Origin: Patescibacteria group bacterium
GTDB taxonomy: Bacteria; Patescibacteriota; Patescibacteriia; Patescibacteriales; UBA12465
Length of the DNA stretch: 64,000 bases
Assembly: GCA_028687275.1 (NCBI GenBank)
Contig: JAQUAK010000001.1
Span: 356,213 to 420,212, forward strand
Direction: 5' to 3'
Both the position numbers and the translations under genes were made by a program. Numbering within the stretch: position 1 is the stretch's first letter; the number at the start of each line of letters is the position of its first letter. Positions 987 through 4,693 of the stretch are shown here, in pieces. The notes beneath the pieces were generated by a model that did not search any database, had not been told where the DNA came from, and worked only from the letters and a program-made list of their open reading frames with translations.

Positions 987-1035
987 TTAAAGTAATAAAA
1001 GCTTTAAACTTTATTTGAAAAATAATATTAAATTT

Positions 1036-3522
1036 ATGAGGAAAACTTTTCTATTGTCTCTAGCTATTGCCGCTAGTGCTGTCTTTATCTTTTTTAATCC
1101 GGTTCAAGCCGCTGTTCCTACTTTATCTTTATCTAGTTTAGATAGCGATAACGTGCAAGTGACGGTTAATGGTGATGCTGATGCTCCTATCTTTTTGTTT
1201 TTTTATAAAACTGATGGAACTACCCTTATGAGTCGGATTGGCACTACTAATGCTAGTGGTTATTACTCTGGTTCAATTAGCAGCTCTAACCTTGCTATTA
1301 GCCCTGAAAGTATTGTTCATGTCATAGTTAATAATCAGAACTCAGCTCAAAAGACTTGGCCAATTGGTAATAGCAATGGTACGAGTGGTGGGGCCCTTTC
1401 TTTGAGCCAGACTGGCGTAGTTATGAAAGTCGCTAATAGCTTAAATCTTAGTGTCTATAACGCTGGCACGCAGTCTTTATATTTATTAAATAATTCTAAT
1501 CCTCAGATTGTTAATGTAAATATTAATAGTAATAGTCAAGTTAATTTAGTGGCTAATACCTATGGCCAAACTGTCGTGACTGTTTGTGCTTTAGGTACAA
1601 CTTCTAATTGTGCCAGTGTTTATGTAACTGTTCAAAATGCTAGCGCTCAGGCTCTAACTTTTAGTCAGAGCACTTTAACTATTGCATATGGACAGAGCAG
1701 TACGGTTTCTATTCTTAATGGCTCTGGCGCTTATACCATTGTTAATAATTCTAATCCTAGTGTTATTCAATCTTCTTTAAGTGCTAGTACTATTACTTTA
1801 ACGGCTAATAATAATGCTGGTAGCGCCTCTTTAACTGTTTGTTCCGCTGATATGAGCGCTTGTGGAATAATTAATGCTAGTGCTGGCACTAGTAATTCAG
1901 CTTCTTTAAGTTTTAGTCAGAGCAGCCCCACAGTCTATATTGGACAATCACAAAATATTACTATTTCTGGTGGTAGTAATTATAATATTTCTTCAAATTC
2001 AAATTCTAATATTTTAAATGCTAGTATTAGCGGCAGTAGTTTAGTTTTAAACGGCAATCAGGCGGGGTCATCAACTATTACCGTCTGTGCTTCTAATGGT
2101 AATTGCGCTTCTTTAACGGCTACAGTGAGCCTGGCTACGGCTGGTGGAGCTTTAACTTTAAGCCAGACTAGCTTATGGTTGCAAATTGGTCAGGCAGTTA
2201 GTGTAGTTATATCTGGTGGCTCCACTCCTTATAGTTTAGGGGTAAATAGTGGTATCTTTTCTTCTAGTTTAAATAATAATATCTTGACTTTGACTGGTGT
2301 TGCTGCTGGCTCGGGCACACTTGATGTTTGTTCTGCTGGTGGAGCTTGTGTAAGCTTATCGGTTTTAGTTAATGGAGTAGCCACTAATACTCAATTGACT
2401 TTTAGTAATAATAACTTATCTTTAACTCCAGCTGCGCAAACATCAGTTTCCTTATTCGGCAATGGTGGTTATTATGTTTCTAATAGTACTAATCAAAATG
2501 TGGCTACGGTTACTGTGACTGATAGTACGGCTGCCGTTAAGGCAATTAGCGCTGGTAGTGCTAATGCCACTATTTGTCAGACTGGTGGCCAGTGTTCAGT
2601 TTTGTATATCTCTGTGGTTTCTAATACTACTAATAATCCACCAGTATTTAGCCAAAATAATCCAGAAATAATGTCTAGTCAGATTTTAAATATTACTTTA
2701 TCTGGCAGTGACAATAATACTTACTTTATTGCTTCAAATTCTAATCCAACTATTGTTAACGCTTCTATTAGTGCTGCTACTTTATCTTTACAGGGCTTAA
2801 CTACTGGATCTTCGGTTCTATCTATTTGCTCGGCTACTAATAATTGTAGCTCCTTGGCGGTTAAAGTGGTCAACGCTACAACTACACCTACTACACCTAC
2901 TACACCCGTAACTACTCCAAGCAACGCTGATAATACTTTAGAGCTAATTGCCTTAGAATCAGGTTATGTGGCTGGAGGCAATGCTGATATTATCGCTGGT
3001 AATGCCAAAATTACTCGCGATACTACTGCTGAAACCAAATCAGAGAATACTTACTTGGCCCCACTTTTAAAGAATTTTAGTTTATCCACTAAATCTTCTA
3101 ATACAATTAACTACTTTATTTGGTATGGAACTCCAGCTACTAAAAAACTTGGAGCAGGTGAGCGTGCTGGTGTTGTCAGCTCTTATCTACAAGCCTATGG
3201 CAAATTACCACAGACAGTGGCTGAGTGGTCTGATGTCCTAAAGATTGCTCAGGGTCGCTGGCCGAGTGAATTAAATGCTAAGGCGGAAACTCAGGCTCAG
3301 TTAGAGTTTAAGAAGGTGTATAATCGTTCAGCTGTTATGAGCAATAATAAGGATGCTAATGCTATTACCATTATTGCCTATGGCTTACGTCCAACTAATC
3401 GTAATACTAATAGTGAGAAAGCAGCGATTATTAGCTTCCGTTACGTTTATGCTCATGATCCTGTTAATCCCTTAGCCTGGAATATCGTCCGCGCCATTGC
3501 CTACAGCGGCACTTCAAGATAG
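1036..3522 (+). CDS. Large secreted protein with six tandem Ig-like modules, PT linker and conserved C-terminal domain
   Basis: ATG 1036 gives signal peptide MRKTFLLSLAIAASAVFIFFNPVQA (the ORF track uses an upstream TTG at 1015). Six ~85-aa repeats each start with xLxFSQ and end in a Cys pair (VCALGTTSNC, VCSADMSAC, VCASNGNC, VCSAGGAC, ICQTGGQC, ICSATNNC). TTPTTPTTPVTTPS linker. Confidence 0.8.
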   Translation: MRKTFLLSLAIAASAVFIFFNPVQAAVPTLSLSSLDSDNVQVTVNGDADAPIFLFFYKTDGTTLMSRIGTTNASGYYSGSISSSNLAISPESIVHVIVNNQNSAQKTWPIGNSNGTSGGALSLSQTGVVMKVANSLNLSVYNAGTQSLYLLNNSNPQIVNVNINSNSQVNLVANTYGQTVVTVCALGTTSNCASVYVTVQNASAQALTFSQSTLTIAYGQSSTVSILNGSGAYTIVNNSNPSVIQSSLSASTITLTANNNAGSASLTVCSADMSACGIINASAGTSNSASLSFSQSSPTVYIGQSQNITISGGSNYNISSNSNSNILNASISGSSLVLNGNQAGSSTITVCASNGNCASLTATVSLATAGGALTLSQTSLWLQIGQAVSVVISGGSTPYSLGVNSGIFSSSLNNNILTLTGVAAGSGTLDVCSAGGACVSLSVLVNGVATNTQLTFSNNNLSLTPAAQTSVSLFGNGGYYVSNSTNQNVATVTVTDSTAAVKAISAGSANATICQTGGQCSVLYISVVSNTTNNPPVFSQNNPEIMSSQILNITLSGSDNNTYFIASNSNPTIVNASISAATLSLQGLTTGSSVLSICSATNNCSSLAVKVVNATTTPTTPTTPVTTPSNADNTLELIALESGYVAGGNADIIAGNAKITRDTTAETKSENTYLAPLLKNFSLSTKSSNTINYFIWYGTPATKKLGAGERAGVVSSYLQAYGKLPQTVAEWSDVLKIAQGRWPSELNAKAETQAQLEFKKVYNRSAVMSNNKDANAITIIAYGLRPTNRNTNSEKAAIISFRYVYAHDPVNPLAWNIVRAIAYSGTSR

Positions 3523-3549
3523 TTCAATTTCTCTATAAGTTTATTCAAT

Positions 3550-3581
3550 AAAACCCATCGCGTTTTACGCGATGGGTTTTA
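3550..3581 (+). terminator. Rho-independent terminator
   Basis: AAAACCCATCGCG / CGCGATGGGTTTT perfect stem with TTTTA loop. Confidence 0.85.
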
Positions 3582-3627
3582 GGTATTTTTTAAGCTGTCT
3601 TCATAGGGATTGTGTTAAAGGATGAGT

Positions 3628-3734
3628 AAATAAAAACACCCTTATGTTTAAATAAGAGTGTTTTTATTGTGCCTGCCTTTCGGCTTATTGTCCCTTATGG
3701 GATTTGGCCGAACGGAGCTTTCACTCACAAGCAC
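3628..3734 (-). ncRNA. Candidate ~107-nt small RNA (unknown family)
   Basis: A minus-strand promoter (3741-3769) sits just upstream. The transcript would form a 66-nt imperfect hairpin (3669-3734) and then a 13-bp terminator hairpin (3632-3665) plus U-run. The one non-Watson-Crick pair (3640/3657) is G.U on the minus strand but C.A on the plus strand. Confidence 0.3.
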
Positions 3735-3740
3735 ATTTTT

Positions 3741-3769
3741 AATATAGCAATTTTTATAAGAGATTTCAA
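3741..3769 (-). promoter_or_regulatory. Orphan sigma70-type promoter on the minus strand
   Basis: Read on the minus strand: TTGAAA (3769-3764), 17 nt, TATATT (3746-3741), 6 nt, then G at 3734. Confidence 0.4.
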
Positions 3770-3878
3770 GTATTGATTTTGAAGCTAATTGTGACGAGTG
3801 AGGGGCGCGTTAAACTGGTTTCATCGACTTCATAACTAATTTAAGCTGTATTCATCGGGGATGTGCTAGCTTTTATTA

Positions 3879-4406
3879 ATGAATAGAATCAGCATTTATA
3901 TTGACGGAAACAATCTTTATCGCTCTGCTAAGGAGCTAAGTTTTAAGATCGATTATAAAAAATTTAGAAGATGGATTGAACAGAAATACAAGCCAAATTT
4001 TGTATATTTATTTATAGGCTTTCTTCCTGCAAGAATAAAATTTTATAAATATCTGCAAAGTTGCGGATATACTTTAGTTTTTAAAGAAACTATTTCTGTT
4101 GGAGAAAAAGTAAAAGGAAATTGTGACGCTGAACTCATTTTAAAAAATGTAACAGATTTTTATAATAAATCATTTGATTCTTGTATATTAATTACTGGAG
4201 ATGGCGATTTTTCTTGTTTAGTGGTTTTTTTAAGAGATAATAACTCTATAAATTGTGTTATTTCTCCAGAAAAAAATAAATGCTCATTTTTATTGAGGAA
4301 CAAAAATGTAAAGATGACTTTTTTAAATGAACACTATTATAAATTTTCTACATTAATAAAAAAAGCCCCCAATACGGACGCATCCGCACAAGGGTCTCTT
4401 TCATAG
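3879..4406 (+). CDS. NYN-domain (LabA/DUF88-like) putative ribonuclease
   Basis: N-terminal ISIYIDGNNLY, central CDAELI, and ITGDGDF acidic motifs typical of the NYN/LabA fold. Very AT-rich (15/60 G+C in line 4201). Confidence 0.8.
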   Translation: MNRISIYIDGNNLYRSAKELSFKIDYKKFRRWIEQKYKPNFVYLFIGFLPARIKFYKYLQSCGYTLVFKETISVGEKVKGNCDAELILKNVTDFYNKSFDSCILITGDGDFSCLVVFLRDNNSINCVISPEKNKCSFLLRNKNVKMTFLNEHYYKFSTLIKKAPNTDASAQGSLS

Positions 4407-4462
4407 TGATATTATTATTATACTGCTCAAAATAAATATGTCAATATATTCAGGACGAGATT

Positions 4463-4477
4463 GTGACAGTATGTCAC
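4463..4477. promoter_or_regulatory. Perfect 15-bp palindrome GTGACAGTATGTCAC (candidate operator or RNA hairpin)
   Basis: 6-bp arms GTGACA/TGTCAC with a 3-nt spacer. The arms are identical to those of the second copy at 4516. Confidence 0.5.
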
Positions 4478-4515
4478 GGAGTGAGTCTTATGATTAAGGA
4501 GTATCAAATGAAACC

Positions 4516-4530
4516 GTGACAAAATGTCAC
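4516..4530. promoter_or_regulatory. Perfect 15-bp palindrome GTGACAAAATGTCAC (second copy)
   Basis: Same arms as 4463-4477. Centre-to-centre distance is 53 bp. Confidence 0.5.
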
Positions 4531-4637
4531 GCTTTGAAAATGTTAAGCTTTGATGGCAAGACACGCCTTATATGAGCCACTGATTTGAAAGCAATTCCGT
4601 TTTATTTGGTCCATTTTACTTATCCACAGGGAAGGGC

Positions 4638-4666
4638 TTGTGTTTCGGTTTAGTTTCGGGTATAAT
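4638..4666 (+). promoter_or_regulatory. lexA promoter with an internal direct repeat
   Basis: TTGTGT (4638-4643), 17 nt, TATAAT (4661-4666). The spacer holds GTTTCGG (4642-4648) and GTTTCGG (4653-4659), 11 bp apart. Confidence 0.5.
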
Positions 4667-4693
4667 AATATTATCAATAAATAAACAATAAAT

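Follow-up and report, generated by a model that had tools for sequence, protein, structure and literature searches.

Introduction

Work on enteric bacteria places the origin of young or orphan bacterial sRNA genes in decaying genes, prophage remnants and intergenic scars. The antisense RNAs of type I toxin-antitoxin systems, such as SymR/SymE, IstR-1/TisB and OhsC/ShoB, are encoded divergently or overlap the 5' region of their partner, and Rfam contains cis-regulatory motifs located upstream of DUF3800 genes (the DUF3800-type RNA motifs). In the literature that we searched, no description of small RNAs in Patescibacteria (CPR) was found, and a verified self-contained sRNA gene from these bacteria would be a useful first example.

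We analyzed a 64,000-nucleotide stretch of a metagenome-assembled genome (MAG) of a Patescibacteria group bacterium, hereafter the window. An earlier inspection of its letters (the sequence-only reading) had proposed a candidate sRNA at 3628-3769, with a promoter, a structured RNA and a terminator on the minus strand. Its anatomy as a self-contained minus-strand unit stands. The assignment as an sRNA fares less well, as the unit is not kept in the only orthologue found and our searches returned neither a further homologue nor a convincing target.

Anatomy of the minus-strand unit

Direct reading of the minus strand gives TTGAAA, 17 nt, TATATT preceded by TGc, 6 nt, G3734, a 66-nt three-way-junction hairpin and a U-tracted 17-bp hairpin, in this order (Table 1). 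The promoter reads CTTGAAA-tctcttataaaaattgc-TATATT-aaaaat-G(3734). The sequence-only reading had described the promoter hexamers, the start nucleotide and two successive hairpins, the second of 13 bp; in our reading this terminator hairpin, T1, has a 10-bp core that extends to 17 bp. The G+C content of the 66-nt hairpin is 53% versus ~33% for its region, and the P3/P3b arm contains an internal loop, CAAA/CAAUAA. T1 is followed by the tail UUUUUAUUU, whose U tract reaches ~3626, and looks terminator-like on both strands; as had been pointed out, the minus strand has G.U at its pair 3640/3657 where the plus strand has C.A. T1 was not flagged by a simple terminator scan; the likely cause is that in the extended stem the U tract is paired to the A tract upstream, which leaves no T run after it. 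As far as the sequence goes, the unit has at its two ends what is expected of an independent sRNA gene: its own promoter at the RNA 5' end and, in T1, a Rho-independent terminator at the 3' end.

The longest internal ORF has 28 codons, as claimed earlier, and runs from the GTG at 3734 into the T1 loop. Both flanking genes were correctly placed on the plus strand. Downstream of the candidate, the minus strand has only a 4-codon ORF before T2 and the convergent 835-aa gene, and we found no same-strand ORF there that the candidate could control in the manner of a riboswitch or attenuator. In the spacer between the minus-strand promoter and DR2, no Pfam signal was found.

Table 1. Positions of the features discussed (window coordinates, unless a related locus is named).
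Feature	Position	Strand	Description
835-aa protein gene	1015-3522	+	Upstream flank
T2, bidirectional intrinsic terminator of the 835-aa gene	3549..3581		15 pairs, 7 G-C
DR1	3589..3617	+	TTTAAGCTGTnTTCAT..GTG.TA; decayed promoter copy, TAAAGG at the -10 position
T1 palindromic hairpin	3629..3668	-	10-bp core ACACUCUUAU/AUAAGGGUGU; 17 bp including A/U tracts; loop UUAAAC
66-nt three-way-junction hairpin	3669..3734	-	Helices P1, P2, P3, P3b
P1	3734-3727 with 3676-3669	-	8 bp
P2	3726-3723 with 3718-3715	-	4 bp, loop GAAA
P3	3712-3707 with 3684-3679	-	UUCGGC/GCCGAA
P3b	3702-3699 with 3694-3691	-	UCCC-AUAA-GGGA, AUAA tip
Predicted transcription start	G3734	-	6 nt past the -10 box
Sigma-70-type promoter	3741..3769	-	-35 TTGAAA 3769-3764, 17-nt spacer, TG 3749-3748, -10 TATATT 3746-3741; score 10/12 with TG extension
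Spacer, minus-strand promoter to DR2	3770..3839		Positional counterpart of the L031 DUF3800 gene start
DR2	3840..3868	+	Extended -10 TGTGC-TAGCTT, 6 nt upstream of the NYN ATG at 3879
NYN-domain protein gene, 175 aa	3879-4406	+	Downstream flank; lexA next
NYN 3' antisense RNA unit (predicted ~55-nt RNA)	4444-4352	-	Consensus promoter TTGACA-16-TATAAT 4444-4417, directed into the NYN 3' end
NYN antisense unit in related loci	L001 6484-6598; L002 2693-2807; L003 6487-6601; L004 6482-6596
NYN antisense unit in related loci, continued	L005 6478-6592; L006 6478-6592; L007 6472-6586

For the predicted 110-nt minus-strand RNA the minimum free energy is -43.9 kcal/mol (z = -7.0), and for its 66-nt core it is -25.0 kcal/mol (z = -3.7); in both cases none of 200 shuffles was as stable. 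The plus strand is stable too (z = -6.3 and -3.0), but P1 and P2 are not formed there. At four base pairs, three of P1/P2 and one of T1, the minus strand has G.U and the plus strand an A.C mismatch, and none is found in the reverse sense, such that the strand argument originally drawn from 3640/3657 is borne out on a wider basis.

A promoter of at least 10/12 ending 4-10 nt upstream is found at 0.31% of the window positions, or at 0.07% with TG, and from this rarity of placement we take the observed minus-strand unit as confirmed and not trivial. Promoter-like hexamer pairs as such were not enriched with respect to shuffles (4 vs 7.1 expected in 2 kb; 77 vs 67 in 20 kb), and scanning 64 kb for promoter-plus-terminator arrangements would yield a few by chance. 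The promoter of the candidate is nevertheless credible because a tRNA gene of the same genome (TTGACA-17-TATACT upstream) and the antisense unit at the NYN 3' end (a 12/12 match) closely follow the same sigma-70 consensus, which looks meaningful in this organism judging from these sites.

A variable slot headed by a recurrent promoter module

The cargo between the 835-aa gene and lexA is the NYN gene in the window, HTH and Fic genes in L010 and L011 (75% identity) and a DUF3800 gene in L031 (77%). As the cargo differs among relatives anchored on the 835-aa gene, the slot is a variable accessory-gene site, and its contents suggest a cassette hot spot. The slot spans 3523-4693 in the window, 6503-7966 in L010 and 2656-3747 in L031, with the same promoter module at the head of each cargo. 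The G+C content of the NYN gene is much below that of the neighboring genes, and its homologues, 45-73% identical (mostly 65-73%), were found in nine GTDB genomes that belong to various CPR lineages. The nine homologue loci have no shared neighbors; only the NYN ORF and its 3' flank are common to them, and nothing in them resembles the candidate. NYN and DUF3800 gave weak matches to candidate defence models. No recombinase or dedicated regulator adjoining the candidate was identified. A Logan assembly (L017 and L018, from run SRR22315507) represents the genome of the window at 99.9% identity.

The candidate is bracketed by a 29-nt direct repeat, DR1 and DR2, with 24/29 matches (83% identity). 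Shuffling the intergenic region 1000 times never gave as good a match. Positions 3810-3826 contain a partial third copy. L031 and L010 each have one copy that can be aligned with DR1 and DR2; the consensus is TTTAAGCTG..TTCA..TGTGCTAnnnT, and of these four aligned copies all but DR1 have an extended -10 at the end (TGTGC-TAGCTT, TGTGC-TATAGT and TATGC-TAGAAT). By this alignment across loci, DR is a promoter that recurs from cassette to cassette. The copy on one side of the candidate, DR1, is dead, as its TAAAGG is no usable -10 box, and the copy on the other side, DR2, is live. From its position, DR2 would give a leaderless NYN mRNA that begins with the ATG at 3879. The same leaderless geometry, a -10 box, 6 nt and a start codon, is found in eight NYN homologue loci. 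It is constant, with ATG or GTG, upstream of the NYN start in L001-L008, at 3867-3881 in the window and at 204-218 in L037, and such constancy in cassette genes implies leaderless mRNAs, several of them GUG-started, in these Patescibacteria.

On the minus strand, the DR core reads ATG, three codons and TAA at 3590-3606, 3810-3826 and 3841-3857 (MKTA*, MKPV* and MNTA*); these mini-frames are probably a side effect of the repeat. A possible second cassette boundary, ATTGTGAC...GAGTGAG (3789-3806 vs 4459-4487), was discarded because the similarity was not significant.

Searches for families, homologues and targets

The view that the candidate belongs to no known RNA family was supported by the Rfam 15 covariance models, which at gathering thresholds found in the window only RNase P RNA and two tRNAs, and no family at the candidate. 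A permissive scan of 3400-4000 gave at best 26 bits, against thresholds of 60-114, in an alignment mostly to the terminator. A covariance model made from the single sequence of the 66-nt core returned nothing but the core itself from the window and all fetched loci, and nhmmer over 38 loci (302 kb; the L numbers) matched only L017, which is the same genome, and L031. A miniature repeat or IS-derived element (MITE, PATE, REP) would be expected in several copies per genome; the 64-kb window, which makes up about a tenth of the ~0.6-Mb genome, and the 302 kb of related loci yielded no second copy of the candidate. Exact-pattern scans covered the JGI metagenome and IMG/VR viral collections; the strict core pattern had no match in these contigs, and the 10 viral and 2 metagenome matches of a loop-only pattern were all rejected by the covariance model. 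A blastn comparison with phages and plasmids gave no match to the candidate. Among the relatives of the 835-aa gene, L010-L015 lack the candidate region and L031 alone has it, and the DNA upstream of seven DUF3800 homologue loci is unrelated to it. The search for homologues in related genomes that had been suggested with the candidate thus ended in L031, where core and promoter are missing. Resemblances to an integron attC site, a hammerhead, a tetraloop-receptor and a T-loop were rejected by eye.

The adjacent NYN and lexA mRNAs, put forward earlier as possible targets, showed no significant duplex with the candidate RNA at their 5' ends. Predicted duplexes with the NYN 5' and 3', lexA 5', DR2 and 835-aa-gene 3' regions were within the range of shuffles (z from -0.8 to +1.5; -0.3 for the NYN 5' region and -0.8 for the NYN 3' region). 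The one outlier, the candidate RNA against the NYN antisense RNA (z = -2.8), most likely reflects the A run of the former against the U run of the latter. Pairing in trans via the direct repeat was considered and rejected, because DR1 comes after T1 and the probable leaderless NYN mRNA starts downstream of DR2.

The orthologous stretch in L031

L031 encodes the closest relative of the 835-aa protein in the protein database (77% identity), and its DNA can be aligned with that of the window over the 3' end of the 835-aa gene, T2, DR, T1 and the P1 arms (nhmmer E = 2.7e-6). In this pairwise alignment the T2 stem is kept via changes on both arms. On the plus strand, L031 has an intact DR promoter, ~150 nt with the T1 palindrome and then the DUF3800 gene, which starts 28 nt past the P1 arm.

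The structure of the window was projected onto the pairwise alignment with L031 and the kept pairs were counted. T1 is the best-conserved part, with 16/17 pairs kept and 19/20 core bases identical; one AU-to-UA compensatory change breaks the flanking A5/T5 tracts. P1 keeps 7/8 pairs, P2 loses 3/4, and P3 and P3b, falling in a 21-nt gap, have no counterpart. The -10 box of the minus-strand promoter reads TATACC in L031 and the -35 position lies inside the DUF3800 start region, and no promoter-like site was found on the minus strand of the corresponding stretch. Outside T1, L031 folds weakly on either strand, and here again no Rfam model came near its threshold. The GTG frame is open for 28 codons in the window and for 9 in L031, such that the ORF is not kept as would be expected of a leaderless small protein.

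Loss of structural conservation had been named as an outcome that would speak against the candidate. What we see is partial: T1 and P1 are kept, P2 is broken, and P3, P3b and the promoter are absent. Judged on this one orthologue, the sequence and structure of the unit are not maintained with compensatory changes as in a conserved sRNA. The statement that the candidate cannot be a UTR, made from the orientation of its neighbors, is right for the window; it fails for the ancestry of the DNA, as the homologous sequence of L031 reads as an apparent plus-strand 5' leader.

A remnant of the DUF3800 N-terminus at 3776-3806 (..CDE*G.. vs FLDESG in L031) was also considered; the likeness is suggestive by eye, but the alignment was ambiguous, not significant and had no HMM signal. 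The DUF3800 subfamily appears as two short ORFs in L032 (3001-3692), L033 (1234-1841), L034 (521-963), L036 (691-1205) and L031 (2941-3588), which overlap by 4-19 nt in four loci and are 72 nt apart in L031. The split could be a programmed frameshift, a two-gene arrangement or repeated decay.

A conserved antisense unit at the NYN 3' end

Following the consensus promoter, the antisense unit at the NYN 3' end has CACUAUGAAAGAGACCC, a 7-bp hairpin, GGGGGC and a U run, and its predicted end is at ~4352. The unit is also present in L001-L007 and truncated in L008. The -10 box is TATAAT in seven of eight loci and TATACT in L007, and a TTGCAT/TTGACA-like hexamer is seen upstream of it by eye. In the alignment of the hairpin, 98.6% of the cells are paired and three pairs show compensatory changes (six double-change cells), and the paired fraction and the covariation score were each reached by none of 500 shuffles. 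An invariant U.G wobble makes the hairpin minus-strand-specific. The NYN ORF ends before the element in seven loci (L001-L006 and L008), so the conservation there is not a coding effect; no conserved ORF was found on the minus strand of the unit, the ATG being ACG in three loci. We found the unit neither in Rfam nor in the literature searched. From its conservation and by analogy, it is possibly a 3'-overlapping antisense regulator of a stand-alone nuclease gene, perhaps of a type-I-like kind. As far as alignments tell, this unit has the look of a conserved sRNA in these genomes, and the candidate at 3628-3769 does not.

Some further elements were observed around the NYN and lexA genes. Upstream of lexA, two GTGACA-N3-TGTCAC palindromes lie at 4463-4477 and 4516-4530 of the window; the second comes after a mini-ORF of 3 codons (ATGAAACCGTGA) that has a strong AAGGAG site, and its region is 93% identical over 42 nt to L010 8861-8902, which in that locus is downstream of lexA. 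The Logan assembly of the same genome breaks directly after this second palindrome (L017 ends at window position 4535). A 20-nt inverted repeat, 90% complementary, joins 4404-4423 and 4660-4679. The sequence GTATAATAATAwTATCA is common to the NYN antisense promoter and the lexA promoter, which may share an operator, and a perfect DnaA-box consensus, TTATCCACA, is located at 4621-4629, ~70 nt upstream of the lexA start; this single occurrence may be due to chance. In other CPR genomes (L001 5918-7831; L002 2100-4065), NYN is found in arrays of single-gene cassettes with 37-71-nt direct repeats between them. In L001 and L008 the array repeat looks like the acceptor stem and D arm, the 5' part, of a tRNA; a tRNA-Asn gene adjoins the L001 array.

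Discussion

We propose that the candidate is the scar of a cassette turnover that now holds a young, target-less, possibly transcribed and lineage-specific minus-strand unit; our comparison of the window with its relatives leads us to give this reading a probability of about 0.5. An L031-like ancestor would have had the DR promoter, a leader with T1 and the DUF3800 gene. A second DR copy would have taken the slot together with NYN, the DUF3800 gene and the -10 box of DR1 would have been lost, and the old plus-strand leader would have been left stranded between the two DR copies. Set against L031, the minus strand of this relic would now have the promoter hexamers and a GC-rich, 21-nt-longer core that completes the three-way junction, and with the A5/T5 tracts of the window T1 would have become a canonical bidirectional terminator. 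Transcription from the promoter, if it takes place, would yield an almost fully paired RNA of ~105 nt, from 3734 to T1, and with T2 as a back-stop to T1 no antisense transcription would run into the 835-aa gene. The unit would have arisen as a by-product when cassettes turned over; it may be an sRNA at birth and would not be a conserved regulator with a defined target.

Several observations lead us to this proposal. The slot is variable, NYN is of low G+C content and without synteny, and the significant direct repeat aligns with the promoters of L031 and L010. L031 is orthologous through T2, DR, T1 and the P1 arms and yet lacks P2, P3, P3b and the minus-strand promoter. There is no other copy in the data searched, no real match to the patterns and no predicted duplex with the NYN or lexA 5' regions. 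Finally, 650 nt away, the conserved antisense unit shows which degree of conservation is expected of an sRNA in the same genomes. Against a turnover scar count the promoter placed exactly at the foot of the hairpin, the strong fold, the four wobble pairs favoring the minus strand and the credibility of the promoter; placement, fold and wobble asymmetry could reflect selection for a functional minus-strand RNA. With L031 as the single, distant orthologue, the difference between it and the window may be either a gain here, that is, an sRNA being born, or a loss in L031.

The same features could thus be those of a genuine, functional and lineage-specific sRNA gene transcribed from its own promoter into a ~105-nt RNA, which, given the sequence evidence, we regard as possible but doubtful. 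Such an RNA, being almost fully paired, would act through loop contacts or protein binding, for instance to the NYN nuclease, and not through a long single-stranded seed. The complete gene anatomy, the placement of the promoter (p ~0.003 to 0.0007), the four G.U pairs for the minus strand against none for the plus strand, the GC-rich island within AT-rich DNA and the 7/8 pairs of the P1 arms kept in L031 all speak for it. However, the sole orthologue has neither core nor promoter, no further homologue or paralogue appeared in the searched data, the NYN homologues elsewhere never carry the candidate, and no significant pairing with the NYN or lexA mRNA was predicted.

It is unlikely that the plus strand is the functional one, with T1, alone or with the adjoining hairpin, as a leader hairpin or attenuator of the DR cassette, or as an insulating second terminator that shields NYN from read-through of the 835-aa gene. 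In favor of a plus-strand role, the homologous stretch of L031 lies between an intact plus-strand promoter and DUF3800, T1 is terminator-like on both strands and it is the best-conserved part. In the window, however, DR1 upstream is without a usable -10 box, a strong terminator is already present behind the 835-aa gene, P1 and P2 are not formed on the plus strand, and the sole imperfect pair of T1 is C.A there. The sequence-only reading had itself offered the hairpin at 3632-3665 as a second plus-strand terminator of the 835-aa gene; this alternative is weakened because in L031 the DR promoter intervenes between the terminator of that gene and T1. A second terminator would directly follow the gene with no promoter between, and here T2 occupies that place.

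The slot could also be a defence-cassette hot spot in which each cassette has its own antisense RNA, as NYN has its conserved 3' unit, the candidate being the orphaned 5'-antisense (antitoxin-like) RNA of a lost DUF3800 cassette, still expressed and perhaps re-used; we consider this quite unlikely. An element acting as DNA is improbable as well, with the 10+10-bp palindrome of T1 and DR as an operator or a recombination site for cassette exchange and the RNA look as incidental: T1 is conserved mainly by identity (19/20 core bases) and not by covariation, the candidate sits exactly between two 29-nt DR copies in a cassette-exchange slot and another cassette leader has a different palindrome, GTGACA-N3-TGTCAC, twice, but no recombinase or dedicated regulator was identified alongside, the three-way junction and the wobble asymmetry are left unexplained, and the T1 extension has one compensatory AU-to-UA flip. 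Least credible, and highly improbable, is a leaderless mRNA for the 28-residue peptide MLVSESSVRPNPIRDNKPKGRHNKNTLI starting at GUG 3734, which shares the geometry of -10, 6 nt and GTG with the NYN homologue genes, several of them apparently leaderless with GTG, and whose ORF ends in the T1 loop, but whose frame stops after 9 codons in L031, where the promoter is missing, whose GUG is buried in an 8-bp helix, which has no Pfam match and whose 28 open codons are not unusual in GC-rich 110 nt (~10% by our estimate).

Since the candidate is not conserved and is known from its sequence only, its main value is one of caution: a perfect gene anatomy is not sufficient in AT-rich genomes. It might show the birth of an sRNA on the scar of a cassette swap, and it also led to the better-supported conserved antisense RNA of the adjoining NYN nuclease cassette.

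Comparison with known systems

The DUF3800-type RNA motifs come to mind because the L031 homologue of the candidate sequence is structured and is flanked by a promoter and a DUF3800 gene, but no Rfam model came near threshold in the window or L031, and the upstream regions of the other DUF3800 loci are unrelated. T1 is like bidirectional intrinsic terminators in its palindromic stem with an A tract on one side and a T tract on the other, and in its terminator look on both strands. Unlike them, it is not placed right after the end of a gene: the gene upstream has a terminator of its own, and in L031 a promoter comes between the two.

The candidate resembles the type I antisense RNAs in being small and structured and in having a promoter and a terminator of its own. 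Its neighbor is a stand-alone nuclease gene, the region is accessory and SOS-adjacent, and direct repeats are the kind of feature that would make a divergent RNA complementary to the 5' region of the neighbor. It differs from those antisense RNAs in that the T1-terminated RNA would end before reaching DR1. DR2 is upstream of the probable leaderless NYN start, no significant pairing was found, and the NYN homologues elsewhere are without the element; the extended complementarity to an adjacent toxin mRNA that marks type I systems was not found for the candidate. The NYN 3' antisense unit shares with it the strand, the kind of promoter and terminator and the cassette slot, and is conserved in eight loci of different CPR lineages, whereas the candidate has no such conservation.

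The last comparison is with the young and orphan sRNAs. The candidate is unlike them in coming from a Patescibacteria (CPR) MAG, in being predicted from its sequence and in that no convincing target was found. It is like them in its own sigma-70-type promoter, its stable 5' structure and its Rho-independent terminator, and also in being restricted to one lineage and located on rearranged, horizontally acquired DNA.
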